64,000 nt of DNA from Minisyncoccota bacterium. Its GTDB lineage: Bacteria; Patescibacteriota; Minisyncoccia; Minisyncoccales; GWA2-38-27. Location of the stretch: positions 25,751 to 89,750 of the forward strand of contig JAQTZP010000004.1 in NCBI GenBank assembly GCA_028687715.1. The letters are read 5' to 3'. The position numbers and the translations under genes were made by a program. This document shows, piece after piece, positions 15,429 to 63,978 of this stretch. Under the pieces are notes generated by a model. It ran no database searches. It had not been told where the DNA came from and saw only the letters and a program-made list of their open reading frames with translations. Position 1 is the first letter of the stretch, and every line of letters begins with the position of its first letter.

Positions 15429-15436
15429 AATCAGTT

Positions 15437-15476
15437 AAAAAAAGACCCGGGCACTTCAACTCGGGTCTTTTATTTT
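15437..15476. terminator. Bidirectional rho-independent terminator between convergent genes
   Basis: AAGACCCGG-loop-CGGGTCTT hairpin with an A-run upstream and a T-run downstream. Confidence 0.6.
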
Positions 15477-15492
15477 AAACCTTTGATTAATC

Positions 15493-18400: not shown

Positions 18401-19758
18401 AGAGTAGGTTCTAAGGAAAGATTAGTGTTTGAAGCTTCAATCCAGATATTTCCAGCAGACTGACCCGGAGGGTTTATAAGTTCGCCCGTAAATGCTGTTA
18501 CATCAAAATTATCGCTTGTTATGCTTCCTTTAACTTGAACCCAGGTTCCTTTTATATTAACATTATTAGGATCGGCTGCAGTATGAAATCCTGTAGAATT
18601 AATTCCAGAAGAACCTATAAAAACTATTCCATTGGGAGCATACAAAGAAATCTTTCCAACTATCCCAGCGCCGCTGTATCCTGTAGCATAAAGATTGCTA
18701 TTCTGATAGCCGCTGTAAGCACTGTTATTAATCCCTGAACCTACTCTTACTCCTCTCTGCTGACCAGTTCCGTTTGCTTGCAGTATAATTTTTCCACTAC
18801 TTTTATAATCCTTGCAGAATCTTCTGAATTTATAAGTGACAGGATTTAATTGGCAAAGATTTCCGTAATCGCATTTCTCTTCCTTAGTACTTTCTTCACA
18901 GGCGCTGTAGGTATAGATATTGTCAGTTATCCAGATTCTCTCATTAGCCTTAATTACAATATTACTAGGCTCAAGCCCCTGGGCAAATAAATTATTGGCA
19001 TATAAAGAGTTAATAAACATATCAAAAGGGGCAGGCAGAATTGTTATCTGACCCGCCCTGCCAAAGCCAGCAGTAGAAAAACCAAATACCGGCGCAAAAA
19101 CCCAGCCATATATTGATTGAGAAGATAAGGACCCTGCTTTAATATCTTTTCCATAAATAGAGATATTTCCTCCGTCTCCGCTAATACCGGCACAACTTAT
19201 ATTCCCTACAGAAACTATCTTCCCTTTTAAAATCACATTACCTCCATTGCCTTGATAAACTACGGCGCTTAACTCTTGGCTAGGCTGATTAAAGATATCC
19301 CCTCCGATTACCAGTCCCTCATTGGTTCTAAAAGTAATATTTGACGGAATAAATGAAACTCCTGAATACTTATAAATAGTAACGCTTTTATACTCTATCA
19401 AATCATAGGCAAATAAGTTTATGTCCGTTAAACTAGGCCTAGTTATCCGTAAACCTTCATCCGGGGAGAAATAAATCTTTTTTGTCCCCTTGATCGCAAA
19501 AGAACTAGCGGTTAATTTTACCTTATCCAAATCATTGCCGCTCCCATCTCTTAAATCAAAAGTTAAACCTGCATTAATCACATTATCAACAAAACTCTTA
19601 TTAACGCAGATAGAATCATCAGCGTCTATTTCCGAACAGGTTGAACTTTGATTAACTAAAGTGCAATTGCAAGATGCGGCAGAAACTGAACCTCCTTTTA
19701 TGGTTATTATAAAAAAGAAAAGAGCAAAGATTATTATTTTTAGCTTTTTATTTTTCAT
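15493..19758 (-). CDS. Giant secreted/surface protein (1421 aa) with Gly-rich repeats, Cys-rich modules and C-terminal FN3/PKD-like domains
   Basis: Signal peptide MKNKKLKIIIFALFFFIITIKGGSVSAA. Many GGxGGxG/SGGNGGN repeats suggestive of a beta-helix/beta-roll. About six tandem Cys-rich units of about 30 aa (CxxVSGxGxxxCxxxxDCxxxHLxC). FN3-like (YYWRVMVWD) and PKD-like segments near the C-terminus. Confidence 0.6.
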   Translation of the reverse strand: MKNKKLKIIIFALFFFIITIKGGSVSAASCNCTLVNQSSTCSEIDADDSICVNKSFVDNVINAGLTFDLRDGSGNDLDKVKLTASSFAIKGTKKIYFSPDEGLRITRPSLTDINLFAYDLIEYKSVTIYKYSGVSFIPSNITFRTNEGLVIGGDIFNQPSQELSAVVYQGNGGNVILKGKIVSVGNISCAGISGDGGNISIYGKDIKAGSLSSQSIYGWVFAPVFGFSTAGFGRAGQITILPAPFDMFINSLYANNLFAQGLEPSNIVIKANERIWITDNIYTYSACEESTKEEKCDYGNLCQLNPVTYKFRRFCKDYKSSGKIILQANGTGQQRGVRVGSGINNSAYSGYQNSNLYATGYSGAGIVGKISLYAPNGIVFIGSSGINSTGFHTAADPNNVNIKGTWVQVKGSITSDNFDVTAFTGELINPPGQSAGNIWIEASNTNLSLEPTLLIENPIYARARYAFAPNGGDVNLVSNYRIEGTAPNGWGRSLIADTSGFTPSDPSPYGSLWYLKEGVSLDPATGSFISDTDAFCREQTHEYYNGTDGQDGVSGGNGGNISVTSPRIQWASGTNILDLKSNGGNGSRGGIGAGGNYCSVGGIYYQGPVTHTMYERGSGGQGGTGGIGGSITVSASRIHCFKSLVLKSNGGKGGESGDYNVMATPFDIYNNHTGNCDLTGWRDKAVKEIKVAEVSGAGGAGGNITLKPMPTDDPIENITAEIKGGDGGDTGDGDYSSYPWYCTNPKSGAELINIAKSGGPNLQTPCQTRVLSPEEVASGISRTSGVVEIAQTGFSSYGGQSGASGGDGGSILIDSPLDISILKNFYASGGIGRRGGTGQSSSINQPGNGGIGGKGGNAGTIQLTNINIIQGQLNPGAGGAGGLQGASVLDLPRADSFCAYSGTYPYWDYGVECPVDSPYCCSYSGLNSCRTKDPLLGGSNYSAENFSIKFIPPSNNGSAGEIGSSVQISSIPSASKGPESCAGEGGGIVSFQDWGSHNICYAEYCIAVMDQGPDECSDSTICRTDDKHRACGVNICNLVSGEGSDECFSNSDCGETHLDCSANRCVSVSGGGEDKCLDDSGCDGSHYECVGTTCVPQPGEGKNECLSNNDCDKQHLECDSSNSCVSVSGEGSNQCFSYEDCEGKSKICTFSNGMIACLLSAKSQLPDECSSDEDCCCGDGIRDAGEECGEPGLNLCFPYQQCINCRCEGEPSNNPPNAPSNISFNPSATDCCDAVPSVAFSWTYSDPDEGDLQSAYQVQVATDEGFNNLIIDTNKVQSSSNSYATQSINFSTNYYWRVMVWDTNGPIDSPWASSTIPSIAEYPCPSFTWDPSNPNVGENTDFFSAGTTCPSGPCNYLWTFESGTPASSTSPNPANIKFNSEGSKEVVLMVTDSLSRDCSLAIDVPIGMTLLPPEWIEIPPF
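16300..16720. repeat. Divergent tandem repeats of about 90 nt inside the giant protein gene, encoding the Cys-rich modules
   Basis: GAAACGCA-containing units of similar length recur on the plus strand. Boundaries are approximate. Confidence 0.4.
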
Positions 19759-30430: not shown

Positions 30431-31780
30431 ATGACAAACGAAGAGCTTTGGCAAGGCGTTCTTGCCCAAATTCAATTGAATATCTCCCAGGCAAACTTTG
30501 CTACTTGGTTTAAAAATACTTCTATTGTTTCTCAAAAAGAAGGCAGGTTGTTAATCTCTGTGCCTAATTCATTTGTCAGAGAATGGCTTGAAAATAAATA
30601 CAATAAGCAGATATTTAAAATAATCCATAATTTAAACGAAGAGATTAAGGAAATCAAATACAGCGTTGGGAAGGCCTCGGAAAAAGCTGTTAAAAAGGCT
30701 TCTATAGACCTGCTTGAAAGCGACCAGCTTGAGTTCCAAGAACTTAAAATAGACAAAGAAACAAACCTTAATCCCAAATACATCTTTGATTCTTTTATAG
30801 TCGGCCCCTTCAATGAACTGCCCCACGCAGCCGCCTCAGCAGTAGCTGAAAATCCAGGATACATCTATAACCCTTTATTCATTTACGGAGGAGTGGGTCT
30901 TGGAAAAACTCATTTGCTTCAGGCAATAGGCAATGAAGTTGCAAAGAACTTTAAAACAAAAAAAGTAAGATATATTTCTTCTGAAAAATTCACTTCAGAA
31001 GTTGTATTGTCTATTAAAAACCATCAAATTGACTCTTTTAAATCAAAATACAGAGCCATTGACGTCTTAATAATAGATGATATTCAGTTTTTAGCAGGAA
31101 AAGAAAAGACTCAAGAAGAATTCTTCCATATTTTCAACGTCTTATACGAGAATAATAAGCAGATTATCCTTTCATCTGATTGTCCACCCAAAGCAATCCA
31201 CTCGTTAGCCGAAAGATTAAGATCCAGATTTGAAGGAGGAATGACAGCGGATATAAGCAATCCTGATTTTGAAACCAGAGTTGCTATTTTAAAAACAAAA
31301 GCTCAGGAAAAAAAGGTTGATTTTCCAATTGAAGTATATAATTATCTTGCTTCTTCTATTCAAAAGAACATCAGGGAATTAGAAGGAGCCTTAAACAGGC
31401 TTATTGCTTATCAAAAAATAAACAACAAGCAGCTGGATTTGGAAACCATAAAGATTATTCTTAAAAACGTTCTAATGAGTCCGGCTAAGGTTATCACCCC
31501 AAAGAAAATCATCCAAACCGTGGCTGAATTCTATGATTTAAAAGAAAAAGACATTTTAGACTGCTCCAGAAAAAAAGAGATTGTAAGACCGAGACAAATA
31601 GCAATGTATTTATTAAGAGAAGAATTAAAAAGCTCTTTCCCTTTTATCGGAAGAAAATTCCAGGGCAAAGACCATACTACTGCCATTCATTCGTATAAAA
31701 AAATAGCTAAAGAAATTGAAAAAGATAAAAAACTGGAAGAAGAAATAAGTTTAATTAAAGAAAGGGTTTTAAGCTCTTAG
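30431..31780 (+). CDS. dnaA: Chromosomal replication initiator protein DnaA
   Basis: AAA+ Walker A GGVGLGKTHLL; sensor motifs; C-terminal DnaA-box-binding domain (RPRQIAMYL...TAIHSY). Confidence 0.95.
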   Translation: MTNEELWQGVLAQIQLNISQANFATWFKNTSIVSQKEGRLLISVPNSFVREWLENKYNKQIFKIIHNLNEEIKEIKYSVGKASEKAVKKASIDLLESDQLEFQELKIDKETNLNPKYIFDSFIVGPFNELPHAAASAVAENPGYIYNPLFIYGGVGLGKTHLLQAIGNEVAKNFKTKKVRYISSEKFTSEVVLSIKNHQIDSFKSKYRAIDVLIIDDIQFLAGKEKTQEEFFHIFNVLYENNKQIILSSDCPPKAIHSLAERLRSRFEGGMTADISNPDFETRVAILKTKAQEKKVDFPIEVYNYLASSIQKNIRELEGALNRLIAYQKINNKQLDLETIKIILKNVLMSPAKVITPKKIIQTVAEFYDLKEKDILDCSRKKEIVRPRQIAMYLLREELKSSFPFIGRKFQGKDHTTAIHSYKKIAKEIEKDKKLEEEISLIKERVLSS

Positions 31781-31983
31781 AAGATGAGGAAAAAATGTTG
31801 ATAAGATTGTGGATTTAAAAGTGATAAAAATACAATAACTTTATCTATTAATTTATCCACAATTTATCTAATGTTTTTTAAAGGGAAAATTAGATATTAA
31901 TCCCCAATAAAACCTATATTAAAAACCTAAATTAAAACTTAACTTAATAATAATAAATTTTAATTAAAAACTAATAATTAATT
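31781..31983. promoter_or_regulatory. Candidate oriC core (dnaA-dnaN intergenic region) with DnaA boxes and an AT-rich unwinding region
   Basis: Perfect TTATCCACA at 31853-31861; degenerate boxes TTGTGGATT (31808-16), TTATCTATT and TTATCTAAT; about 100 nt of more than 85% AT sequence immediately before dnaN. Confidence 0.7.
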
Positions 31984-33114
31984 ATGAGATTATCAATTTT
32001 ACAAGAAAAACTAAAAGAAGGATTAAATATTGTTGAAAGAGTTTCTTCTAAATCTTTATCTCTTCCTATTTTAAACAATATCTTGATTTCTACTGAAAAG
32101 AATTTCTTAAATTTAGCTGCAACTGATTTAGAGGTGGGAATAAATTGGTGGGTCTTGGCTAAAATTGAAAAAGAAGGAAAAATTACAATTCCCAGTAGAT
32201 TATTTTCAAGTTTTATTAATCTTTTACCTAATAAAAAGATAGATATAAAGGAGGAAAAGAATAATATATTTATTGAGTGTGAGAATTATAATACTCAAAT
32301 TAAAGGAATTTCAGCTGATGAGTTCCCTATTATTCCTAAAATAAATGAAGGCGAATCAGTGTCTTTTGATATTAATTTATTTTGTCAAAGCGTTAACCAA
32401 GTAGTTGATATTCCGGTATTATCAACTACTAGACCTGAAATTTCAGGAGTTTATTTCTATTTTAATAAGAATTTAATAACAATTACTGCCACTGATAGTT
32501 TTAGATTGGGCGAAAAAAAGATATTTCTTAAAAACAGCTTTAATTTAAAAAAAGAATATTCTTTAATTATCCCCCAAAGAGCTGTAAAGGAAATTATTAA
32601 TATATTCGGAGAAAAAAAAGGAGAATTAAAGGTATATTTTTCAACAAACCAAATAATGTTTGAGTCTTTTATGGAAGAAACAGAGCATTCTCAGATTCAG
32701 CTTGTTTCCCGCTTAATTGAAGGAGAATATCCGAATTATAAGGAGATTATACCTTCAAAATATGCAACTCAAATTATCTTGGATAAGAATGAGTTTTTAA
32801 ACCAAATAAAAGCAGCCAGCTTGTTCAGCGGCAAGGCTAATGAAGTTAAAATAAAATCAGGATCTGGCGATAAAACAATAGAAATTTCCAGTCAAAGTTC
32901 AGAACTTGGGAGTAATAAATCTTTAATTCCTGCTAAAATCAAAGGAGAATCAGTAGATATTTCGTTTAATTATAGGTTCCTATTAGATGGTATTTTAAAT
33001 ATTAAAAGCTCAGAAATTATCTTTGAGCTAAACAGCGATTCAGGTCCCGGGGTATTAAAACCAGTAGGAGATGATAGTTATATCTACGTAGTTATGCCGA
33101 TAAAGGCAAGTTGA
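31984..33114 (+). CDS. dnaN: DNA polymerase III beta sliding clamp
   Basis: Length of about 376 aa with three-domain clamp-like periodicity, directly downstream of dnaA. Confidence 0.85.
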   Translation: MRLSILQEKLKEGLNIVERVSSKSLSLPILNNILISTEKNFLNLAATDLEVGINWWVLAKIEKEGKITIPSRLFSSFINLLPNKKIDIKEEKNNIFIECENYNTQIKGISADEFPIIPKINEGESVSFDINLFCQSVNQVVDIPVLSTTRPEISGVYFYFNKNLITITATDSFRLGEKKIFLKNSFNLKKEYSLIIPQRAVKEIINIFGEKKGELKVYFSTNQIMFESFMEETEHSQIQLVSRLIEGEYPNYKEIIPSKYATQIILDKNEFLNQIKAASLFSGKANEVKIKSGSGDKTIEISSQSSELGSNKSLIPAKIKGESVDISFNYRFLLDGILNIKSSEIIFELNSDSGPGVLKPVGDDSYIYVVMPIKAS

Positions 33115-52966: not shown

Positions 52967-53779
52967 CTAATCCTCTTGAGGCATAAAGTACTTTATTATA
53001 TCGACTACGCCTTGAGTGTTTGCAAATGGAGAAATTCTTCCTCTTTTTTCTCTCACAAGTTCCTTGCATTTTAGACTGGCATTTACCGGGCATCCAATCA
53101 GCCGGAGCTTCCTTAGAAAGGGTATGTCTTCTTTGGCGTCTCCTATGCCTATGGATCTTTTAAGATCTATTCCTTCACGCTCGGCTAAAAATTCTAAGCC
53201 AGTGCCTTTATTGATATTAGCCGGAAATACGCTTATTGAATTATAAAGCCGAATAACTCTTAGCATCCTGCGCTTTACAAAATAATTTAGCTCACCTCTT
53301 ATAACCTTACGCATTTGATCTAAGTCAAGAGGGCCTTCAACGCTTCTTATTCTCTCTATTGAAATTCCCACAAGGTTTCCATAGCAAAGAGACATTCCAG
53401 GATGATTTTTCAAAATTCTAGCCACTCTTTTTCTTAGAGTCCTTAGAAATAATCTTTTGATTCTGGGAGTTATGTCTGGGCTTAAGATTAGTTCTTTGGT
53501 CAAAGGGTTGAAAAGGGCAATTCCGTTTTCAATCACAGAAAAACAGTCAGGCAATCCTAAAAGACAAGCGATCATCTCAACACAGTTTCTGTTTCTGCCC
53601 GAGCAAAAGGTTATTTTAGGAAACATTCCTATTTTTGCCTTCTGAATTTTTTGAGCGAGCCAGAAAAGAGACTGATAATCAGAAAGGCAGACATTAGCGT
53701 CCTGGGAAAGCAGGCAGCCGTCTATATCAACAAAAATCCTGTTATTTGTCTCTGTCATAATTCTTTCTCCTGATATCAA
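52967..53779 (-). CDS. HAD-superfamily hydrolase, subfamily IIB (Cof / sugar-phosphate phosphatase-like)
   Basis: Motif I FVDIDGCLL and motif IV GIGDAKEDIPFL with a cap insertion between them. Confidence 0.6.
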   Translation of the reverse strand: MISGERIMTETNNRIFVDIDGCLLSQDANVCLSDYQSLFWLAQKIQKAKIGMFPKITFCSGRNRNCVEMIACLLGLPDCFSVIENGIALFNPLTKELILSPDITPRIKRLFLRTLRKRVARILKNHPGMSLCYGNLVGISIERIRSVEGPLDLDQMRKVIRGELNYFVKRRMLRVIRLYNSISVFPANINKGTGLEFLAEREGIDLKRSIGIGDAKEDIPFLRKLRLIGCPVNASLKCKELVREKRGRISPFANTQGVVDIIKYFMPQED

Positions 53780-54406: not shown

Positions 54407-54730
54407 ATGGAGTTTAAGAAATTGCAGAAAAAAATTATTAAAAACGCTTTAGATTATGGCAGAAAGTATAAAGTGAAAATAGACGAGGATTTTGCCTTTC
54501 TTAAATTATACGAAGAGGTTGGCGAGTTAACGCAGGATTTTTTAATTTACAAAAGAAAATGCAGACCGGAAAAATATTTATCTGAAAAAAGAGCTAAAGA
54601 AGAATTGGCAAAAGAACTCGCTGATGTTTTAGGGCTTATTGTGCTGAATGCCTACTTATTAAATATAGATTTAGAAGAGGCGATAGATAATAAGTGGATA
54701 AACAAAAAATGGATTAGCCAAAAGATATAG
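54407..54730 (+). CDS. MazG-like nucleoside triphosphate pyrophosphohydrolase domain protein
   Basis: EEVGELTQ and ELADVLGL are the EExxE/ExxD metal-binding helices of the all-alpha NTP-PPase fold. Confidence 0.5.
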   Translation: MEFKKLQKKIIKNALDYGRKYKVKIDEDFAFLKLYEEVGELTQDFLIYKRKCRPEKYLSEKRAKEELAKELADVLGLIVLNAYLLNIDLEEAIDNKWINKKWISQKI

Positions 54731-54968: not shown

Positions 54969-55533
54969 ATGAAAAAAAGAAATATAGAAATAGAATTTCG
55001 ATCAATATTCAATAAACAAAAATATGATAATTTACGAGACTTTCTGGTAAAGAATGCCCAGAATCTCGGGGAAGATGATAAAGATGTTTTTTTTCTTCAC
55101 TCTTAAAGATAAACTTCTAAAAGTAGAAAATAATATCTCAAAGAAAAATGCCAATATCGTTCTAAAGCTGAATAGAATAGGAAATGGAAGTAATTTTGAA
55201 GAATTTGAATTACCTATTCCTCAAGACAAAGTTGACCAAGCAGTTAAAATATTTACTGCAATAAATCTTACTGACAATATAATGCATTCATTTCAACGAC
55301 GAATTAATTTTATTTATAAAGATGTTGAAATCGCCCTTAAATATAGTGATGTTTGGGGGTATCATCTTGAATTAGAGAAAATTATAAACGATGAAAAAGA
55401 AAAACAGATGGCTGAAGAAAAAATAAAAAAAGTGGCGAATGAATTAAAGATTAAATTAATGACCGACAAAGAACTTACCGAATTTACTAAAAAAGCGGAA
55501 GAAAATTACAGAAAATCAAAAAAATTATATTAA
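54969..55533 (+). pseudogene. CYTH-domain (triphosphate tunnel metalloenzyme-like) gene disrupted by a frameshift in a T8 homopolymer
   Basis: The upstream frame (ATG 54969) reads MKKRNIEIEFRSIFNKQKYDNLRDFLVKNAQNLGEDDKDVFFLHS* with a CYTH-like ExExK-type start. A -1 T in the T8 run at 55088-55095 would fuse it to the 55054..55533 ORF (..DVFFFTLKDKLLKVEN..). Confidence 0.5.
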
Positions 55534-55534
55534 A

Positions 55535-55975
55535 ATGGAAATAATTAAATATTCCAATCTTTCTCAAGAAGAAAAACAACTTGTAAATAAAGCTATAATG
55601 ATTGCCGAACAATCTAATTTTGGAGCTGATAATAAAATTGGTTGTGTAATTTTATGTAAAAATGGAGATGAATTTTATGGAGCAGTAATGGACAGAACTA
55701 GGGCTATAGGTTCTACTTGTGCAGAACGAATGGCCGTAGATTAATTATATTTCCATAATAATAAAAAACCCTGCCTAGTAGTACTAACAGGGGTATTTAA
55801 TAGAAAAGAGTGGACAAAGAGCACTATTTGTACTCCATGCGGAGTATGTTTAGAAATGTTTCTAATTCTATTATCATCTTTGAATTTAGATAATTTAAAC
55901 TTTCTCTGTTCAAGTTGGAACAAGAAGAGAATCCTTCGTACTAAGCTTACAGAACTTTATCCTCAGATAAGGTAA
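55535..55975 (+). pseudogene. cdd: Cytidine deaminase gene interrupted by an in-frame TAA
   Basis: The N-terminal part (..VILCKNGDEFYGAVMDRTRAIGSTCAERMAVD) stops at TAA 55742-55744. The same frame continues ..LYFHNNKKPCLVVLTGV..ICTPCGVCLEMF.., containing the second zinc ligands (PCxxC). The CAE and PCGVC motifs are correctly spaced for Cdd. Confidence 0.55.
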
Positions 55976-55985
55976 TTCTTGAAAT

Positions 55986-56636
55986 CTAATTGTTTCCGAT
56001 TCCATTAATAAATCTAACTATATCGTGAGCAACGCTAGCGATTTTCACTTTTTTCTCTAAATCCGAGTCGCCATTATTGACGACTAGACAAGGAGTGCTT
56101 CCTTGAAAACATTTTTCTACTAATGTTCGCCATGCTTGATTACTTTCTTCTGAGACGTCCTCTTTAGAGAATCTTCCTTTATTTCTTACATCCGAATTAT
56201 TCAACATATCTTTTTGTCTTCTTTTCCAGGCACTATTTGCATCTACCTCAACATATATGGCACCCCTGAAAACTTTCTTATACCAAAGTCTTATTCTTTC
56301 TTTATAGACAATTGTTTTTCCAATATTATCTTGTTTAAGAAGAACTAAATGTAATGTAGCTACCGCTTTAATGTCTTCTCTTAAGAAACCCGCTAAGTAT
56401 GATTGAAAATAACCATCAGCGATTTCATCAATTTTCTCCGGAGGCATACTCTCTAAATGAAGATACCATTCTTTAGGAGTTGTTTCCGGAGAAAGAGGGT
56501 CCGCTGGATAACCAATAGCTTTCATAAAAACTTTTGTGCTTCTTATTACGATAATCTGCGGATCAATTAATTGAACTTCGTGTAAGATTGAATCTTTACC
56601 GGCACAATTCTGTCCAAAAATAGCGAATGCTGTCAT
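55986..56636 (-). CDS. P-loop NTPase/kinase-like protein of unknown family
   Basis: Walker A-like FGQNCAGKDS near the N-terminus. GC-richer than its surroundings. Divergently oriented from the downstream cassette. Confidence 0.45.
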   Translation of the reverse strand: MTAFAIFGQNCAGKDSILHEVQLIDPQIIVIRSTKVFMKAIGYPADPLSPETTPKEWYLHLESMPPEKIDEIADGYFQSYLAGFLREDIKAVATLHLVLLKQDNIGKTIVYKERIRLWYKKVFRGAIYVEVDANSAWKRRQKDMLNNSDVRNKGRFSKEDVSEESNQAWRTLVEKCFQGSTPCLVVNNGDSDLEKKVKIASVAHDIVRFINGIGNN

Positions 56637-56838
56637 TTTTCACCTCCTTTCAAGCCCAAACACATTGTACAAAAAATTTGACTAATTGATTTTAACCTTG
56701 TAAAATAAAATTATTAGAAATTTAGGTCGTTTAAATAAAAAATAATAAATTTATGCATAAATCACTTGACAAAAATAAGTTTAAAAGATATCTTAAATAC
56801 AGAACACTTCAGCAGAACCTTAACATCTTAAAAAGGAG

Positions 56839-57615
56839 ATGAGAAAGATGGTTAAGCCAGAATCTATAGCATTGTATGTTATCAAAAATATACCGCTTAT
56901 TAGGGCGGGTGATAACCTTGGTGTAATAATTGCTAATTGTATTCAGAAGCAAGATATGTTAATTTTAGATAGAGATATTCTTGTTATTGCACAAAAAGTT
57001 GTTTCTCGCGCCGAGAATAGAATGGTTCTATTAAGTAAAGTTATACCTTCTCAGGAAGCTAATTATCTTGCGTCAAAAACTAGACGCGATCCCCGGTTAT
57101 GCCAGTTGATCCTTGATCATAGTAGAGTTTTGTACTGTAACGATAAAGCCATCATTACCCAAGATCGATTAGGCATTGTCAGCACAAGTGCTGGTATTGA
57201 TCGTTCGAATTCTGATTCGCCAGAAGGAGAAATAGCAATATTACTTCCTGAAAACCCCGATTTAAGTGCCCGGAGAGTTCGAGACAAAATTAAGGAAATA
57301 ATGGATGTGAATGTGGCCGTGATAATAAGCGATAGCTTAGGTCGACCTTGGCGCGAAGGATCGGTTGGTATGGCGATCGGTTTAGCTGGTATTAAAGCAA
57401 TCGAAGCTACTGAAAAAAGAGACTTAAGTGGTCGAGTTATTCATCCCGAAATTGCTTTGGTTGATAGGGTTGCCGCCGCTGCATCTATTTTGATGGGAGA
57501 AGCAGATGAGGGCTATCCTGTTATTATTGTTCGGGGAATAAATTACACGCCATCCGATACAGTAAAAATCAGAGATCTTCTTCGTCCAGCCGAAGAAGAT
57601 CAGGTATGGGAATAA
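56839..57615 (+). CDS. CofE-like (F420-0:gamma-glutamyl ligase family, PF01996-like) protein
   Basis: IALVDRVAAAASILMGEADEGYPVIIVRG resembles the conserved CofE C-terminal motif (..AAAAEL.MGKA.EG.PVV.VRG). Length is about 250 aa. AAGGAG RBS; the likely start is ATG 56848. Confidence 0.55.
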   Translation: MRKMVKPESIALYVIKNIPLIRAGDNLGVIIANCIQKQDMLILDRDILVIAQKVVSRAENRMVLLSKVIPSQEANYLASKTRRDPRLCQLILDHSRVLYCNDKAIITQDRLGIVSTSAGIDRSNSDSPEGEIAILLPENPDLSARRVRDKIKEIMDVNVAVIISDSLGRPWREGSVGMAIGLAGIKAIEATEKRDLSGRVIHPEIALVDRVAAAASILMGEADEGYPVIIVRGINYTPSDTVKIRDLLRPAEEDQVWE

Positions 57616-57664
57616 TTTTTTTAGGTCATAACCCAATAGGTTGTGGCTTTTTTAAAAACTAAAT

Positions 57665-59245
57665 ATGCAAATTTGTAAAAAAACTAAGATAGCCTTAGTA
57701 AATCCGAATAATCGAGGTTCTTACAGGTCAAATTATTTAACAAGAGAGAATTTAGGATTAGGCTATCTTGCATCCTGGCTTATCAAAAATAATTGTGAAG
57801 TTAGAATTTATGACGCAAGGTTGGAGAAAAAAGGACCAGATATCATAGCAAAAGATATTCTTTCTTTCGGTCCAGATGTTGTGGGAGTTTCTTTAATAGT
57901 TAAAGAAGCAAGTTATTGGACCAGAAGATTAACCGAATATTTAAAAGATGGCGGAATAAAAGCTCAAATAGTTATGGGAAATTATTTTCCTTCTCTTCAG
58001 CCAAAAAGAGCTTTAGATTTAATTCCTGAGGCTAATTATATAGTTAAAGGAGAAGGGGAGCTTTCACTTCTTGGACTGGTTCAAAGGATTAATAAAAAAA
58101 GAAACTTAACTGGCATAGAGGGGATTTTTATCAAAAATAAGATAGGAAAAATTTATTTTACTGGAAGAGGGAAATTAATATCAAATTTAGATTTTTTACC
58201 ATTTCCTTATCGTTATGCAGATGAAAACCAAATAACTGAAATATCAATAGAAGGATCTAGGGGATGTTTTTATAATTGTACTTTTTGTGCAATACCTTGT
58301 CATTTTGACGCTGATCCTCGATATAAATGGAGAGCAAGATCCGCCGATCATATTATCGCAGAAATAATCCAACTTAGAAAGAGATACCCAAATATTAATA
58401 TTTATCGTTTTGTTGATCCAGATTTTATAGGTTATAAAAAAACAGGAGAAAAACGAGTACTTGAGTTTGCTAAATTGGTTATAAAACATCGGCTTGATAT
58501 CAAATTTTATATCGAGACAAGATCTTCTAATGTAGAAGATATAAAATTATGGGAAATTTTAAAAAAAGCTGGATTAAGACAAGTTTATATTGGAGTTGAA
58601 ACAGGAAGTCCAAAAATAAAGAGAATGATGGATAAAAAATCCTATTTTTTTCAAGATGAAAAAGCTATAGCACTGTTAAGAAGTATAGGAATAAATACTC
58701 AATATGGATTTATGATGTTTACCCCTTGGACAACAGAAAAAGATATTTTACTTAATATTAGATTTATCAAACAAATTGGTTATGCTGGTTTAGATAAATT
58801 TTTTCAAGAAATGAATCTTGTTCCAGGTACAAAGGCTTTAGAATTAGCACAGGAAATAGAAACGATTTTTCCAGACGGGGATACTGGTTATTATACTTAT
58901 AACTTACCTCCAATAGTTGATCGTTTAAGAAAAATAGGAAGAATGTTTGAGGATGCTAAATATGTCTATTTTCTTGAAAGAATTTGGTTTTTATATAAAG
59001 ATATACAGTATCTTAGTCAATTAGGAATAAGCAAAACAGATATTTTTAAAAATAATTTAAATGATCTTAATTTCCATGTTTTTACCTTTTGTTTAAAAAG
59101 TGCCAGAAAAGCAAAATCAAGCGACGATAATATTCTTATTTCTATCGTTGAACAATGTATAGAAAAATTTATTCCCAAGATTAAATTATTAGAAGAAAAA
59201 TTAAATCTAAAAATACATTTTCTAACAGATATTGGACATCGTTAA
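57665..59245 (+). CDS. B12-binding (class B) radical SAM protein
   Basis: CFYNCTFCAIPC contains CxxxCxxC, with an N-terminal cobalamin-binding-like domain. This is the third such paralog in the window. Confidence 0.75.
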   Translation: MQICKKTKIALVNPNNRGSYRSNYLTRENLGLGYLASWLIKNNCEVRIYDARLEKKGPDIIAKDILSFGPDVVGVSLIVKEASYWTRRLTEYLKDGGIKAQIVMGNYFPSLQPKRALDLIPEANYIVKGEGELSLLGLVQRINKKRNLTGIEGIFIKNKIGKIYFTGRGKLISNLDFLPFPYRYADENQITEISIEGSRGCFYNCTFCAIPCHFDADPRYKWRARSADHIIAEIIQLRKRYPNINIYRFVDPDFIGYKKTGEKRVLEFAKLVIKHRLDIKFYIETRSSNVEDIKLWEILKKAGLRQVYIGVETGSPKIKRMMDKKSYFFQDEKAIALLRSIGINTQYGFMMFTPWTTEKDILLNIRFIKQIGYAGLDKFFQEMNLVPGTKALELAQEIETIFPDGDTGYYTYNLPPIVDRLRKIGRMFEDAKYVYFLERIWFLYKDIQYLSQLGISKTDIFKNNLNDLNFHVFTFCLKSARKAKSSDDNILISIVEQCIEKFIPKIKLLEEKLNLKIHFLTDIGHR

Positions 59246-59271
59246 AATAAATTTCTAAAAACGATAAAAAT

Positions 59272-60417
59272 ATGCAATATAAAATAGCTATTGGTATTCC
59301 ATCTTATAATGAAGCGAGGTATATCAAATTTGTTTTGACTCAGATTGATAGAGGTCTTAAAAAATATTATAAACCATCAGAATGTTTAATTATAAACTTA
59401 GATAGCAAGAGCAATGATGGGACTAAAAAAGTATTTTTAACAACCAAAACAGTTTGTTCCAAAAAATATCTCGAAACTCCTATAGGAAAAGGAAGGGCAA
59501 TGTTAAATTTTTTCAAATTTTGCTTGAAACGAAACATACCATACATTACCACAATTGATGCTGACTTAACTTCTATCGCCCCTGACTGGATGTTTAAACT
59601 TATAAATCCATTAACAAAAGGATATGACTATACTATTCCTACCTATACTCGAAATCGTTTTGAGTCAAATATCACTAATCATTTCGCTTATCCGTTATTA
59701 TATAGTATGTATTCCGTGGGTTTACGCCAACCCCTAGGGGGTGAGTTTGGTTATAGTCAGAAATTTTACGAGTATATATTAAAACAGCCTAAACACCCGA
59801 AAACCTTTGAATACGGGATTGATATATTTATCTCATGTAATGCCATTGCTGGGGGATTTAATATCCAAGAAGTATATCTTGGTAAAAAAATACATGCTCC
59901 GAGTTTTTATCACATGGAGTTAACATTTCGACAAGTTTTTGAGTCGGGTGTTTTTGTTAGTAAGATCCATCGGCGATACAAAGCCAAGCATGGTAGTATA
60001 ATATTGAACACTGTGTCGTCTGGAATTGATAACCTTAAATATTTTCCCCACAAAAATGCGATAAATCGGTTATTAAAACAATTACGGCACCGCTTTTTTA
60101 GATATAACGAAGCGGGTTATTATAATAAGTATTTAAATCAGGAATTAATTAAAAAGCTGAAATATATTATTGGTAGCAGTAAACCAAATTTGTCTGGTGA
60201 CCTATGGATAGATGTTCTTTCAAATGTATTAAAAAAATGCTATCAGTCAAACTTTGATATCAAAGAGATATCTTTAATTTCAAGGATTCTAGTTCCAATT
60301 TATCGATGGCGTGCCGCATCTTGTTGGTTAGAAATCGAGAATATGACAACTAAGGAAACGGAAGAGGTAATATGTCGAGAAGCAAGACGATTACGAAAAA
60401 AATTATTATATCATTAA
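59272..60417 (+). CDS. GT-A fold glycosyltransferase (family 2-like)
   Basis: N-terminal IGIPSYNEARYI (GT2 signature) and DxD motif TIDADL. Confidence 0.6.
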   Translation: MQYKIAIGIPSYNEARYIKFVLTQIDRGLKKYYKPSECLIINLDSKSNDGTKKVFLTTKTVCSKKYLETPIGKGRAMLNFFKFCLKRNIPYITTIDADLTSIAPDWMFKLINPLTKGYDYTIPTYTRNRFESNITNHFAYPLLYSMYSVGLRQPLGGEFGYSQKFYEYILKQPKHPKTFEYGIDIFISCNAIAGGFNIQEVYLGKKIHAPSFYHMELTFRQVFESGVFVSKIHRRYKAKHGSIILNTVSSGIDNLKYFPHKNAINRLLKQLRHRFFRYNEAGYYNKYLNQELIKKLKYIIGSSKPNLSGDLWIDVLSNVLKKCYQSNFDIKEISLISRILVPIYRWRAASCWLEIENMTTKETEEVICREARRLRKKLLYH

Positions 60418-61685
60418 TTATTATTTTAATAACTATGAATAATTTATTTTTTGATTCAAATTTAGTGTCAATAGAAAAAAGATCATTTGAACTTGTAGAA
60501 CGAAAGGGAATTGGGCATCCCGATACGCTAGCTGACGGAGTGGCAGAAGCGATTTGTTTGGAGTATTCAAATTATTGCTATAATCATTTCGGAGCTATTT
60601 TACATCAGATGTTAGATAAAATTATGTTTATCGGGGGAAAAGGTGAATTTGCTTTTAATTACGGAAAAATGTTAGAACCGTGGAAACTTATAATAAACGG
60701 AAAGCTAACTGAAAGTTTCGGTAATACCCAGATTAATTATCAGGATTTGGCTACTCGTGTTACTAAAGATTATTTACGGAAAGTAATTCCTAACTTAGAT
60801 GTAGAACGTTGGCTGAATATTATTTTTTATACTTCGACATCTTCGAAAGCCCCCTATTGGTTTCATCCTCGTACGCTAACTGATGTGCCAGATGCCAGTA
60901 ATCCTTATGCTAATGATACGGTGACAGCAGTCGGGTATTGGCCTTTATCAATAACAGAAAGATTAACTTTATTAATGGAAAGGTATTTTTATCACAAAAA
61001 TGATACTCCTCGTTTTTCTTTTATTGGACAAGATATTAAGATATTATCTGTTAGAAAAAAGAAAAATATTGATATTACCATATGCGTACCTTTTTTCTCC
61101 GCTAAAACCCCTAATGCTGATGTATACTTTAGTCGCAAAAGAAAAATACAAAATGATTTACAGAATATAGCTAATCAATTTTTGAAAGGAAAATACAAAG
61201 TTATACTATCTATTAATACCCAGGATGAAATGATCAATAATCCGTCCAGAGGTATAGGATTTTACTTTGTAGTTTCCGGATCAGCGTTAGATTCGGGAGA
61301 AGAAGGTGTGGTTGGACGAGGAAATCGATCTCGAGGATTAATTTCAAATGTCCGACCTTACAGTATAGAAGGAATCCATGGCAAAAATCCAGTGTATCAT
61401 GTTGGTAAAGTTTTTAACTATATTGCTGATTTGTTTGCTAAAAAGATTTCTGAGGAATTTAGGTGTGAATGTAATGTTTTTATATCATCTCGAAATGGCG
61501 ATGATTTGAATATACCTAGACATATTATTATTCAAACAGATAAAAAAATTATTAATAAAAAGAAAGTTAACGTTGTATTAGATAAAATTTTGGAGAAAAA
61601 TATTGCTAAAGAAATTTTATTGCATAAGCCATATTTACCAATCCCGGGCGGTGGAAATGGATATGTAGCATCATTAAGCATTTAG
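60372..61685 (+). CDS. Archaeal-type S-adenosylmethionine synthetase (MAT, PF01941-like); likely true start at ATG 60435
   Basis: VERKGIGHPDTLADGVAEA, FGAILHQ, ANDT, VGYWPLSITERLTL..ERY and GSALDSGEEGVVGRGNRSRGLISNVRPYSIEGIHGKNPVYHVGKVFNYIA align closely with the archaeal MAT as recalled from memory. The first 21 codons overlap the upstream gene. Confidence 0.85.
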   Translation: MSRSKTITKKIIISLIIILITMNNLFFDSNLVSIEKRSFELVERKGIGHPDTLADGVAEAICLEYSNYCYNHFGAILHQMLDKIMFIGGKGEFAFNYGKMLEPWKLIINGKLTESFGNTQINYQDLATRVTKDYLRKVIPNLDVERWLNIIFYTSTSSKAPYWFHPRTLTDVPDASNPYANDTVTAVGYWPLSITERLTLLMERYFYHKNDTPRFSFIGQDIKILSVRKKKNIDITICVPFFSAKTPNADVYFSRKRKIQNDLQNIANQFLKGKYKVILSINTQDEMINNPSRGIGFYFVVSGSALDSGEEGVVGRGNRSRGLISNVRPYSIEGIHGKNPVYHVGKVFNYIADLFAKKISEEFRCECNVFISSRNGDDLNIPRHIIIQTDKKIINKKKVNVVLDKILEKNIAKEILLHKPYLPIPGGGNGYVASLSI

Positions 61686-61696
61686 TTTATATTATT

Positions 61697-62710
61697 ATGG
61701 GTACGTTATTTGCATTTGTGTGTAATATATCGATGAGAGATCGTTCTGTAAATGTATTTAGTAGTACAGATGCTTTTTTACCATTGATAGAAAAGGGAGA
61801 ATACATCCCTTTTATTCCGGGGTGGAAATGTAGTACAAAAAAGGTAAATACAAAATATTCTATTTTTTATTTTCCAGGAAAAGAAATAAAATTAATATAC
61901 TCAAAAGATAAGTGCTCAATAAAACTATACGGGCCCCTTAACTATTTTATCGATGGACAAGCTATTGCTTATTTGATTTATTCTTTACTTGAGCTTGATC
62001 GACAAGAATATAATCAGACAACAGCCCATTTGGCAGCTTGTTCTAAAAATGGCCGTGCAGTAATATTATTAGGTGAACGAGGGGCTGGTAAGACATCTAT
62101 TCTTTTAATGTTGTGTAGGGACTATGGCTACAAATTAATAGCTAATGATATCGCTTTGATCGGTTTTAATAAACAGCGAGGAAAGAGCTTTATTGTCGAT
62201 GGAACAAAAATTTTTGGTCTTCGTCATACCGCTGCGGAAAAAAACCATCCTGATTTATTAAAATTATTTCCGAAAACTATTAAAGATTCATGGACTACTA
62301 AGCTTTTTATTTCTCCATATGAAATTAACGTACAAATAGAAAATAAAAAAGTAGTTGTATCATCAGTATTTTTTTGTCATCTTGATTCTGGTATCAGAAA
62401 AATTTTTTTAGATAGAATGTCTGGAAGTTGGATTAAAATCAACCTATACGAAAATTTTTCTCGTTATATTAGAGGATCAGCTTTGATACCCTTTCTTGAT
62501 GGTAAGAATTATAGTAACATTGGTTATATCCCTAATTTGGATACAATAGAATTTCATCAAAAAAGAATTAATCTTATTAATTATTTAGTTAATAAGCTTG
62601 GTATCACGTATATCTCCGGTAGCGATATTCATAAGATTTGTGATATAATACACAAAAAACACCGGAAAGTAGCTAAAATATTTAAAATTTTGAACAGAGA
62701 AAGAATCTAA
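61697..62710 (+). CDS. HprK-like P-loop kinase domain protein (HPr kinase C-terminal domain homolog)
   Basis: AHLAACSKNGRAVILLGERGAGKTSILLMLCRDYGYKLIANDIALI resembles the HprK/P C-domain P-loop (GvlitGeSGvGKSE.AL.L..RGH.LvADD). Confidence 0.5.
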   Translation: MGTLFAFVCNISMRDRSVNVFSSTDAFLPLIEKGEYIPFIPGWKCSTKKVNTKYSIFYFPGKEIKLIYSKDKCSIKLYGPLNYFIDGQAIAYLIYSLLELDRQEYNQTTAHLAACSKNGRAVILLGERGAGKTSILLMLCRDYGYKLIANDIALIGFNKQRGKSFIVDGTKIFGLRHTAAEKNHPDLLKLFPKTIKDSWTTKLFISPYEINVQIENKKVVVSSVFFCHLDSGIRKIFLDRMSGSWIKINLYENFSRYIRGSALIPFLDGKNYSNIGYIPNLDTIEFHQKRINLINYLVNKLGITYISGSDIHKICDIIHKKHRKVAKIFKILNRERI

Positions 62711-62816
62711 AATATCTTCAGGTGAAATTATTATTCAAGTTTTTTGAACGGATATTGGTTTCTCAAGAAATAGTTGAGATATAATGGATTATATGAATAT
62801 ATTTTTATAAAATATC

Positions 62817-62957
62817 ATGAAATTAAAAGAAGAAACAAAAATGTCAATCAGCTTTATGCTTTTTGTCATTACATTTATTTTAATGTCTCCTTTATTATTG
62901 TTTCTTTTTATGGCTAAGAAATTATGGGGCTGGAGGGTAATTGATAATCTTTTTTAA
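62817..62957 (+). CDS. Candidate 46-aa hydrophobic micro-protein (not in the ORF track)
   Basis: MKLKEETKMSISFMLFVITFILMSPLLLFLFMAKKLWGWRVIDNLF has a single transmembrane-like core. It lies directly downstream of the HprK-like gene. Confidence 0.2.
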   Translation: MKLKEETKMSISFMLFVITFILMSPLLLFLFMAKKLWGWRVIDNLF

Positions 62958-63145
62958 ATGAACGGGCATAGGCAGTCATTCTTTTATAAGAGTTCAGTTA
63001 AAAATAAAGATGTTGCATTTTGGAATAGAATTTAATAGTAAAGGGCAAGACCCTTTTTCTTATTAAATTCTACTTAACTTCTATAGTTAAAAATGGTAGA
63101 ATATGATTGAAAAATAATAAGTAGAAGGTAAATATAGAAAATAGA

Positions 63146-63553
63146 ATGTTTAATTTGAAAGAAAAAAAGACAATTAAAAAAATTGCAGATAAGTATTTTC
63201 TTGATTTGATTTTACTTTTTGGCTCAAGGGCTTCTGGAAAGAATTATAAAAGAAGCGATTTCGATATCGCCTATTTAGGCAGAAAAGAATTAGATCTTAA
63301 TAAGGAGGCGGGTTTAATTTTAGAACTTTCATCGGTTTTTAAAAGCGAAAACATTGATTTGGTGAATATCAAGAAAAGTTCACCCCTTTTATTTTACGCT
63401 ATTACCAAAGAATGCCGGATTATCTATGAAAAAAATCCTGTGATATTTCCTGCTTTAAGGGCATACGCTTTTAAAAAATACATAGAAACAAAGCCTTTAT
63501 ACGAAGAAAAGTTTAAAAGACTAAGAAATAAAATAAAAGGTTCAAATCGATGA
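63146..63553 (+). CDS. mntA: Nucleotidyltransferase-fold antitoxin (MntA-like)
   Basis: LFGSRASG...SDFDIA is the Pol-beta superfamily GSx9-13DxD motif. It overlaps the next gene by 4 nt. Confidence 0.75.
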   Translation: MFNLKEKKTIKKIADKYFLDLILLFGSRASGKNYKRSDFDIAYLGRKELDLNKEAGLILELSSVFKSENIDLVNIKKSSPLLFYAITKECRIIYEKNPVIFPALRAYAFKKYIETKPLYEEKFKRLRNKIKGSNR

Positions 63554-63978
63554 CTTTTAAAAAAGCGTTTATCTACCAAAAAATAGAAGAAATTTCAGGT
63601 TATTTAATAGAAATAAAAGATTTCCTTAAGTATTCAGATGCGGAAATTTTAGCTGATTCTGGCAGAGTTCATATTGCCGAGAGGCTTCTTCAGTTAATAG
63701 TTGATACCATGATCGATATAAATCAACATTTTATTCGAGAATTAAATCTAAAAATATCAGAAGACTTTCAGGGCACTTTTTACCTTTTAGGAAAAGAGAA
63801 GATTTTACCTAATAATTTTGCCATAAAGATTGCTCCTGTGGTTGGGTTGAGAAATCGTATAGTTCATCGTTACGATACATTGGATAAAAAACTTTTCATC
63901 AAAACACTTAGGAAGAATTATTCAGATTTTGAAGAATATATTAAGCTGATAAATAATTATTTGGAAAAGAATGCATGA
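63550..63978 (+). CDS. hepT: HepT-like (DUF86) toxin
   Basis: RNRIVHRY matches the Rx4HxY RNase motif of HepT. The start is coupled to the nucleotidyltransferase gene. Confidence 0.75.
   Translation: MTFKKAFIYQKIEEISGYLIEIKDFLKYSDAEILADSGRVHIAERLLQLIVDTMIDINQHFIRELNLKISEDFQGTFYLLGKEKILPNNFAIKIAPVVGLRNRIVHRYDTLDKKLFIKTLRKNYSDFEEYIKLINNYLEKNA

Follow-up and report, generated by a model that had tools for sequence, protein, structure and literature searches.

What might five tightly packed genes in a tiny, presumably cobalamin-scavenging bacterial genome make together? The DNA analyzed here, called the window throughout, is a stretch of 64,000 nucleotides from a Minisyncoccota bacterium of the candidate phyla radiation (CPR) (assembly GCA_028687715.1, contig JAQTZP010000004.1, positions 25,751 to 89,750). 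At 56839-62710 it carries five co-directional genes with intergenic gaps of only 49, 26, 17, and 11 bp, in line with a sequence-only reading of the window that had noted five tightly packed, co-directional genes there. They encode a CofE-family ligase (CofE), a B12-binding radical S-adenosylmethionine protein (rSAM), a GT-A glycosyltransferase (GT), an archaeal-type methionine adenosyltransferase (MAT), and a P-loop kinase of 337 amino acids (P337). Comparison with related loci separates these genes into a conserved core of four and one exchangeable gene. We tentatively propose, at somewhat less than an even chance, that the operon makes a glycosylated 2-hydroxy (aldonic-type) acid with a glutamylated carboxylate and lineage-specific tailoring.

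To define the conserved unit, we fetched more than 60 loci around members of the rSAM family, with about 20 kb of sequence per homologue, and ran tblastn on them using the window proteins as queries. The closest rSAMs are accompanied by CofE, GT, MAT, and P337. Within these loci and others reached through P337 or MAT homologues, all four were found together at L025 to L028, L031, L068 to L073, and L075 to L078. Counting any kinase, a MAT, kinase, GT, and CofE co-occur at at least 10 nonredundant CPR loci, in at least seven gene orders (Table 1). The kinase gene directly follows the MAT gene in every arrangement, and the flanking genes are different at every locus. The linkage persists at identities down to 32 to 47%, through nonorthologous replacement of the kinase, and through gene fusion, with the GT and the CofE-like ligase being a single 673-amino-acid polypeptide at L077:11681-13702. 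We also picked four MAT homologues blind (53, 47, 45, and 43% identity), with long contigs as the sole criterion, and all four adjoin GT, CofE, and kinase genes. Because these sets recur in shifting orders while the flanks differ everywhere, MAT, kinase, GT, and CofE form an invariant core that is joined by one variable slot and acts as a functional unit across many CPR lineages. The sequence-only reading had envisaged a fixed five-gene cassette, which has to give way to this arrangement. Its view of the genes as a unit holds, and the prospect it had raised against itself, of scattered genes around a housekeeping MAT, is clearly contradicted by the related loci.

At L031, the CofE gene (1120-1905) encodes a protein 72% identical to the window CofE, and the other four cluster genes encode proteins with 44 to 52% identity. 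Clusters thus seem to have traded components and become mosaics. A literature search on the gene combination, on CofE and archaeal-type MATs in CPR bacteria, and on LarA contexts returned no description of the cluster, in agreement with the earlier remark that the combination is not a known pathway. It is a hitherto undescribed conserved CPR operon. Retention of a four-gene module across many small-genome, mostly uncultured lineages makes it likely to be important to CPR biology.

Table 1. Elements of the operon in the window, and gene orders at the loci compared with it
Feature	Position	Strand	Remarks
Candidate promoter region, intergenic	56637-56838	+	202-bp gap before the CofE gene; upstream ORF divergent
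CofE-family ligase gene	56839-57615	+	PF01996/TIGR01916; core gene
B12-binding radical SAM gene (rSAM)	57665-59245	+	PF02310 and PF04055; variable slot
Retaining GT-A glycosyltransferase gene (GT), mannosylglycerate/glucosyl-3-phosphoglycerate synthase type	59272-60417	+	PF21969 and PF00535; core gene
Archaeal-type methionine adenosyltransferase gene (MAT)	60435-61685	+	PF01941; NCBI start, 416 aa; core gene
P337 gene, HprK/P- and PEPCK-fold P-loop kinase, 337 aa	61697-62710	+	Core gene
Terminator-like hairpin downstream of the operon	63040-63056	+	6-pair stem, then T-run
Gene order, window			CofE>rSAM>GT>MAT>P337
Gene order, L027			P337<MAT, CofE>rSAM, <GT
Gene order, L031			CofE>GT>MAT>P337>rSAM
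Gene order, L074			GT>CofE>MAT>APH-family kinase>HAD phosphatase; APH kinase in place of P337
Gene order, L075			MAT>HprK-like>CofE>GT
Gene order, L076			GT>TylCIII-like C-methyltransferase>MAT>HprK-like; CofE and a different B12-rSAM adjoining
Gene order, L077			MAT>HprK-like>RelA/SpoT-type HD hydrolase>GT-CofE fusion
Gene order, L078			GT>CofE>MAT>P337>rSAM; two His_Phos_1 phosphatases adjoining
Gene order, nearest relatives of P337 (64-65% identity; including Candidatus Buchananbacteria)			CofE>LarA-like>GT>MAT>P337

The GT passes the cutoffs of PF21969 (MGS_GT; 38.7 bits, cutoff 27) and PF00535 (41.1 bits, cutoff 23.3), and its only PDB matches are structures of mannosylglycerate synthase (MgS). 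Its DxD motif is DAD (residues 96 to 98). Among nine cluster GTs, the lysine of GKG, the DxD motif, and the residues that correspond to MgS R131 and T139 are invariant or nearly so; the threonine is strictly invariant, and an (R/Q)QP(L/I)(G/A)GE loop is present in all nine. In MgS and in glucosyl-3-phosphoglycerate synthase (GpgS), the acceptor carboxylate is bound by the backbone nitrogen of Ile138/Val186 and the side chain of Thr139/Thr187, respectively (PMC2581804). Because these MgS/GpgS acceptor residues are kept, the hydroxyl that the cluster GTs glycosylate is predicted to lie alpha to a carboxylate, as the 2-hydroxyl of a 2-hydroxy acid does. The GT had earlier been called a generic GT2 or CofC-like fold, and it is more specifically an MgS/GpgS-like protein with a putative hydroxy-acid acceptor.

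The ligase raises the question of coenzyme F420. A CofE gene is present at all cluster loci. The window protein scores 213 bits with PF01996 (cutoff 25) and 232 with TIGR01916 (cutoff 180.65), and it misses the PRK13293 cutoff (227 against 274). It aligns over its full length to Af-CofE (PDB 7uld) and keeps the catalytic core for GTP, metal, and glutamate. In Af-CofE, Phe92 and Arg234 stack on the deazaflavin chromophore of F420 (PMC10861534). The Phe92 position is K, G, R, or A in all 10 cluster CofEs compared, in a part of the alignment that is somewhat uncertain, and Arg234 is retained in 6 and lost in 4. No gene for CofC/FbiD, CofD/FbiA, or the FO synthase CofG/H was found within about 10 kb in the window, at L025 to L031, or at L068 to L078; the sole near-match is a weak CofC/TIGR04282-like gene 5 kb away in L075, which is below cutoff. 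A 2021 review (PMC8498797) does not count CPR bacteria as F420 producers, whether known or predicted. We rejected the F420 pathway because the partner genes are lacking at the loci and the chromophore-stacking residues are not conserved. The sequence-only reading had thought an F420-like logic without CofD or CofG/H conceivable, and this was its nearest remark to the evidence: the partner genes are indeed absent from the loci. In place of F420-0, the predicted substrate of CofE is the product of the GT, whose carboxylate it would glutamylate. This would place a ligase family known almost only from F420 synthesis in a new chemical context, and the linkage of GT and CofE predicts a new class of glutamylated glycoside.

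In P337, the Walker A motif and an (A/G)ND motif are invariant, and the fold of the catalytic domain and the P-loop are like those of HprK and phosphoenolpyruvate (PEP) carboxykinase (PEPCK). Profile scores are low. P337 reaches 15 bits with PF07475 (cutoff 33.3) and its orthologues up to 26, and the L077 orthologue scores 35 with TIGR00679 (cutoff 240). The orthologues have weak matches to HprK_rel_B, FomB, and ScmC (PF27840; a name that we could not trace in the literature), and no Pfam or NCBIfam model is above cutoff. Of the earlier domain calls, CofE, B12-rSAM, GT-A, and MAT are all supported by hidden Markov model searches, whereas the HprK-like call stands by fold and P-loop but not by the PF07475 cutoff. 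No ptsH or other phosphotransferase system (PTS) gene was seen at any cluster locus. Because an APH-fold kinase takes the place of P337 at L074, the substrate is argued to be a small molecule. We considered a methionine-salvage reading (MtnK/MtnC) of the APH and HAD genes at L074 and rejected it, because NCBIfam gave a weak homoserine-kinase-like match and a generic HAD match, and no MtnK.

The fifth gene of the window lies in the variable slot, in which we saw a B12-rSAM, a LarA-like protein, a TylCIII-like C-methyltransferase, or a Gfo/Idh/MocA oxidoreductase. L068 and L071 align collinearly with the window over 56827-57672 (CofE) and 59278-62658 (GT, MAT, and P337), with nucleotide identity of about 68%. 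The break in collinearity falls exactly at the rSAM gene, where L068 to L073 carry a LarA-like gene. Core proteins of the window are 64 to 74% identical to those of the LarA-type loci, whereas the nearest relative of the rSAM is 52% identical. GC3 of the rSAM gene is 0.160 (z of -3.2), the lowest among 57 window ORFs (mean 0.318, standard deviation 0.050). Together, the break, the GC3 outlier, and the low rSAM identity indicate that the rSAM gene replaced a gene for a LarA-like 2-hydroxy-acid epimerase in situ, and fairly recently; no LarA remnant was found in the window. Both the GTHR and the GFSGGxK motif are retained in the LarA-like protein, which among solved structures is closest to a LarA homologue with the annotation putative uronate isomerase. 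Characterized LarA homologues all act at C2 of 2-hydroxy acids (PMC11770544). Here a nickel-pincer LarA-type enzyme and a B12-radical SAM enzyme have been cleanly exchanged at a single place in the operon, and nature seldom offers such an experiment in how pathways diversify.

The rSAM passes the cutoffs of PF02310 (49.5 bits) and PF04055 (72 bits), and the CxxxCxxC cysteines (C201, C205, and C208) are invariant in 44 family sequences. There are about 75 full-length orthologues, followed by a sharp drop in score. The best NCBIfam scores do not exceed 95 bits against cutoffs of 250 to 750, making this an orphan family, and the weak matches include ApyD and rSAM_ocin_1. Against solved structures, the family profile scores 150 bits with OxsB (5ul2) and 84 with the runner-up. 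In a rough neighbor-joining tree, the operon-linked rSAMs are intermixed with CPR rSAMs from other gene contexts, whose neighbors encode NDK-like and NUDIX proteins, a sugar-phosphate nucleotidyltransferase-like protein, and a second rSAM. These nucleotide-type neighbors and the likeness to OxsB point to a nucleotide-linked substrate as a plausible one for the window rSAM.

More distant rSAM orthologues (34 to 40% identity) occur at L006 to L009, L012, L014, L016, L039, and L043, in Alphaproteobacteria, Chlamydiae, and others. They are clustered with genes for PEP mutase, Ldh_2, SAM_HAT_N (SAM hydroxide adenosyltransferase-like), HIT-like, and adenylate-kinase-like proteins. In the tree, the alphaproteobacterial and chlamydial orthologues that neighbor PEP mutase, Ldh_2, and SAM_HAT_N genes branch as clades of their own, and their cluster is apparently an uncharacterized phosphonate pathway. 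Two candidate relatives of P337 from this wider family were rejected. An unannotated 337-amino-acid protein encoded after the rSAM gene at L006 has the P-loop as its sole match, and the extra 350 amino acids of an 870-amino-acid rSAM fusion (P0032) are unrelated.

The MAT scores 298 bits with PF01941 and shares about 40% of its residues with proven archaeal MATs, but it misses every NCBIfam equivalog cutoff (at best, 368 bits against 481). Its reading frame extends upstream to 60372, and the NCBI call was used in Table 1. In 119 members of its clade, the catalytic and ATP-binding His33, Asp66, Asp201, Tyr271, and GRGNR are invariant. His62 and Asn161, the ligands of the methionine carboxylate, are kept, and Asn64 is variable (Met in the window protein). 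However, Asp283 is Glu in all 119 members, turning GDDG into GEEG, and the gating loop RIGQGSxDL, the loop of Asp144 and Leu145, is replaced in all of them by a longer loop, ...S-K-x-P-x-W-F-x-P-R...D-V-P-D. The Asp of GDDG binds the alpha-amino group of methionine and the ribose, and the gating loop contacts adenine and the methionine side chain (PMC3853416). The MAT thus appears to be a CPR-specific, archaeal-type subfamily with a remodeled methionine site, and it might find use in the production of SAM analogues. The 64-kb window contains no bacterial MetK motif.

How could these proteins work together? In the proposed pathway, the GT would use a nucleoside diphosphate (NDP)-sugar to glycosylate a 2-hydroxy (aldonic-type) acid at its 2-hydroxyl; the acid might be glycerate or lactate, for example, and might be phosphorylated. 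The kinase would make a phosphorylated intermediate, and varied neighboring phosphatases would remove the phosphate, as in the GpgS/GpgP and MpgS/MpgP pathways. Phosphatase genes adjoin three clusters (HAD at L074, HD at L077, and two His_Phos_1 at L078). Next, at the expense of GTP, the CofE-like enzyme would attach L-glutamate, once or several times, to the free carboxylate, which would be a chemical analogue of the 2-O-substituted lactyl carboxylate of F420-0. Finally, the enzyme from the variable slot would tailor the sugar or the acid moiety, giving lineage-specific products. In the window this is probably a cobalamin-dependent C-methylation or rearrangement by the rSAM, on a nucleotide-linked or glycosidic intermediate, with SAM supplied by the adjacent MAT. 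Class B enzymes spend two SAM per methylation; OxsB, the nearest solved relative, is not known as a methylase. Four independent assignments, those of the MgS-like GT, CofE, the LarA-like protein, and the PEPCK/HprK-like kinase, converge on small 2-hydroxy or enol acids, and the two central steps are linked to each other by the fusion of GT and CofE.

Several points weigh against this proposal. The GT matches are weak (E of about 1e-10, and 38.8 bits with the GpgS equivalog NF010496, far under its cutoff of 262), and the acceptor residues are necessary but not sufficient. A glycolytic acceptor such as 3-phosphoglycerate would make the kinase needless, and the phosphatases are found at some loci only and belong to generic families. 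The job of the rSAM may differ from that of the LarA-like protein it replaced, given the NDK-like, NUDIX, and nucleotidyltransferase context of its relatives and the action of OxsB on a nucleotide. The MAT as a source of SAM for a B12-rSAM makes sense in the window, though not in clusters that are minimal or of the LarA type, and the proposal leaves the obligatory MAT, its fixed adjacency to the kinase, and the clade-wide changes in the methionine site unaccounted for. Genes for CofC, CofD, MetK, or LarBCE could sit elsewhere in these genomes, beyond the neighborhoods searched, and we infer the product throughout.

The behavior of the MAT invites a different product. The MAT and the adjacent kinase might make a modified adenosyl or sulfonium compound, either by adenosylation of a methionine analogue (for example, its 2-hydroxy acid) or by phosphorylation of SAM, which the GT and CofE would glycosylate and glutamylate and whose nucleoside part the OxsB-like rSAM would act on. 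This would explain a MAT in every cluster, directly upstream of the kinase, even where there is no SAM-consuming enzyme, and it suits a MAT that falls under all equivalog cutoffs and has an altered amino-binding residue and gating loop in 119 of 119 members while the ATP and catalytic residues are invariant. It also suits a nearest rSAM structure that acts on adenine nucleotides, rSAM relatives that keep company with SAM_HAT_N, adenylate-kinase-like, HIT, NUDIX, and NDK-like genes, and the RelA/SpoT-type HD hydrolase after the kinase at L077. However, the level of identity to proven archaeal MATs and the retained His62 and Asn161 speak for ordinary SAM synthesis, an Asp-to-Glu change is conservative, and these genomes need SAM, with no other MAT seen in the 64 kb examined. 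The acceptor geometry of the GT wants a hydroxyl alpha to a carboxylate, which SAM does not have. We regard this reading as unlikely, and slightly more so its fuller form, in which the MAT is not solely a housekeeping enzyme and the product is a cofactor derived from SAM and peculiar to CPR bacteria, oligoglutamylated like F420 and remodeled by an OxsB-like rSAM or a LarA-like enzyme depending on the lineage. A noncanonical synthesis of the tail of F420, or of an F420-like flavin or deazaflavin, we judge improbable. In it, the kinase would be the missing lactate kinase that makes 2-phospholactate, the lactate would come from LarA in the right enantiomeric form, the GT-A protein would stand in for CofC and CofD, and CofE would add glutamates. 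The archaeal lactate kinase "CofB" is indeed still unidentified (PMC8498797), a PEPCK/HprK fold suits a PEP- or 2-phospholactate-like ligand, sister clusters carry a LarA-like enzyme, and CofE is above the TIGR01916 equivalog cutoff. Set against this are the absence of CofC, CofD, and FO synthase genes from the examined loci (the L075 gene being below cutoff), the chromophore-stacking Phe missing in 10 of 10 CofEs and the Arg in 4 of 10, a GT that retains the DxD and MgS acceptor motifs of a true NDP-sugar transferase, the position of CPR bacteria outside the producers listed in the same review, and a MAT that has no place in the scheme.

The product might also be as we propose and yet not be a soluble metabolite. 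Glucosylglycerate primes the mycobacterial methylglucose lipopolysaccharide (MGLP) (PMC2581804). By analogy, the compound we propose could be a primer or anchor for a variable cell-surface glycoconjugate, diversified by the swapped tailoring enzymes, and such a surface would serve host or phage interactions. Exchange of accessory genes between close relatives and the mosaic makeup of L031 (CofE at 72% against 44 to 52%) would be in keeping with this, as would lipid head-group genes (CDP-OH_P_transf and CarS-like) downstream at L068 and L069, glycosyltransferases near L077, and methylated glycans as a reason for the SAM demand. But adjoining envelope genes are not conserved across loci, the core has no flippase, polymerase, or membrane-anchoring enzyme, and all four core proteins look soluble, so that we give this use of the product a small but real chance. 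It is very improbable that there is no pathway at all and that a housekeeping MAT has unrelated neighbors by chance or operon hitchhiking. Every cell needs a MAT, and compact CPR genomes have many mixed operons, but a linkage that survives at least seven gene orders, divergence to 32 to 47% identity, kinase replacement, and GT-CofE fusion, in flanks that differ at every locus, is not what chance would leave. Least probable of all is tailoring of a ribosomally synthesized and posttranslationally modified peptide (RiPP), with the 46-amino-acid ORF at 62817 as precursor or immunity peptide, which the sequence-only reading had suggested. B12-rSAMs, HprK-related kinases, and GTs do occur in some RiPP clusters, the rSAM has its weak matches to ApyD and rSAM_ocin_1, and a PqqD-rSAM gene lies just past the end of the window. 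However, that gene is separated from the operon by a toxin-antitoxin pair and a MazG-like gene, and the 46-amino-acid ORF, which has one hydrophobic stretch, is a singleton with no counterpart at related loci and is not conserved with the core. The operon proteins have no PqqD or RiPP recognition element (RRE), the rSAM has no SPASM domain, and the core has no protease, transporter, or leader-recognition gene; its conserved partners are a hydroxy-acid-type GT, CofE, and a MAT. The suggestion of peptide tailoring is thus unsupported.

Within the window, the gap upstream of the CofE gene is the probable promoter region of the operon. It contains two sigma-70-like matches of 10/12 each (56678-56706 and 56766-56794), but the region has no more matches of this kind than shuffled sequence is expected to give. 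The hairpin downstream of the operon is weakly and tentatively a terminator, and terminator-like sites in the region are likewise no more frequent than shuffling predicts. A search for riboswitches and leader RNAs was negative at both gathering and permissive thresholds. The operon had been called compositionally distinct. This applies to the rSAM gene, which is the one clear outlier. The CofE gene is GC rich, as claimed (overall GC 0.403, z of +1.4), and the operon as a whole is only mildly atypical (GC3 z of -2.0 for P337, -1.8 for MAT, and -1.0 for GT). The TTA fraction of Leu codons is elevated (0.58 to 0.61) in rSAM, GT, and MAT, as claimed, but not in P337, and ATA among Ile codons is undistinctive.

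The ORFs around the operon do not belong to it. The 216-amino-acid ORF at 55986-56636 had been described as a GC-richer gene for a P-loop protein, but its GC of 0.352 is the window average and its Walker-like GQNCAGKD is imperfect. It has no family match in profile searches and no relatives at any fetched locus (a singleton cluster), and a single-sequence AlphaFold2 model (pLDDT of 35) was unusable. This ORF, the 46-amino-acid ORF, and a MntA/HepT toxin-antitoxin pair (63146-63978), correctly recognized before and above NCBIfam cutoffs for both proteins, are outside the operon. A pair of the same type is found at L074:3564-4215, about 3 kb from the cluster there, which is probably a coincidence, such pairs being common. 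Farther upstream are two reportedly disrupted genes. The cdd fragment at 55535-55744 is a truncated cytidine deaminase (profile positions 2 to 60 of 102; E of 2.8e-4, below cutoff). The other, a possibly frameshifted CYTH/CyaB-like ORF pair (54969-55106 and 55054-55533), has a weak cyaB match (E of 2.5e-4) as its sole support and no Pfam match. An HAD-IIB gene at 52967-53779, with weak similarity to phosphoglycolate phosphatase and MPGP, was left out of the pathway since it is not conserved with the cluster.

A public contig matches the window without differences across 16.3 kb. MazG-like paralogues (70% amino acid and 73% nucleotide identity) lie at 54407-54730 and, past the window end, at L001:16345-16674 (about 64009-64338). 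They bracket about 9.3 kb with the gene fragments, the orphan ORF, the operon, the small ORF, and MntA/HepT, and this may be a rearranged or inserted segment. The PqqD-domain radical SAM gene (RiPP-maturase-like) is at L001:16914-17501, from about 64578 onward. Two further B12-binding radical SAM genes are on the minus strand at 341-1837 (498 amino acids) and 4463-6001 (512 amino acids), with a Mur-ligase-like gene (1834-3156) between them; their products are 27 to 28% identical to the operon rSAM. At least three class B rSAMs in 64 kb is unusual for a genome of this kind. The window also has dnaA and dnaN within 30431-33114, next to its lowest-GC stretch (31 to 34 kb; 0.28), and probably spans the replication origin, with the cumulative GC skew turning near 30 to 31 kb. 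The stretch 14241-19758 holds a gene for a 1,421-amino-acid protein with an Ig-like domain as its sole match and, next to it, one for a protein with a lamin-tail domain; the two products are probably large and located at the cell surface.

Several known systems resemble parts of this operon. The kinase recalls HPr kinase/phosphorylase, the HprK-related kinases (TIGR04352 and TIGR04355), and FomB, but P337 is under all of their model cutoffs; unlike HPr kinase/phosphorylase, it has no HPr or PTS context and is replaceable by an APH-fold kinase. Its N-terminal lobe gives the whole protein the look of a mini-PEPCK. The rSAM shares a B12-binding domain and a radical SAM core with CxxxCxxC with OxsB, by far its best solved relative, whose N-terminal domain it lacks (about 520 against 744 amino acids). 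The HD phosphohydrolase of the sister cluster L077 is reminiscent of OxsA of oxetanocin A biosynthesis, and the class B cobalamin-dependent radical SAM enzymes Fom3, GenK, and TokK are the group compared alongside OxsB. The MAT shares the catalytic His, His62, Asn161, Asp201, Tyr271, and GRGNR with the archaeal MATs (TkMAT, MjMAT, and SsMAT), but it has GEEG and a replaced gating loop, is bacterial (CPR), and is always within this operon.

The closest parallels are two pathways that the operon seems to combine. Like the GpgS-GpgP, MpgS-MpgP, and MgS systems (GT81/GT78), it has a GT-A-fold enzyme with DxD, a PLGGE loop, and the carboxylate-holding Thr with Arg; like MgS, the enzyme is about 380 amino acids long with a two-domain layout; and like the two-step pathways, some clusters carry a phosphatase. 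The known glucosylglycerate and mannosylglycerate pathways have no CofE-type ligase, dedicated kinase, MAT, or rSAM/LarA tailoring. F420 tail synthesis (CofC, CofD, and CofE/FbiB) offers the other half, since the cluster CofE is above the TIGR01916 cutoff with its catalytic core kept, and the predicted 2-O-substituted 2-hydroxy-acid carboxylate would mimic the phospholactyl end of F420-0. Here, however, CofE is linked or fused to a glycosyltransferase, and CofC, CofD, CofG, and CofH are missing from the loci. The cluster looks like a hybrid of glucosyl- or mannosylglycerate synthesis and F420-tail glutamylation, while being a member of neither.

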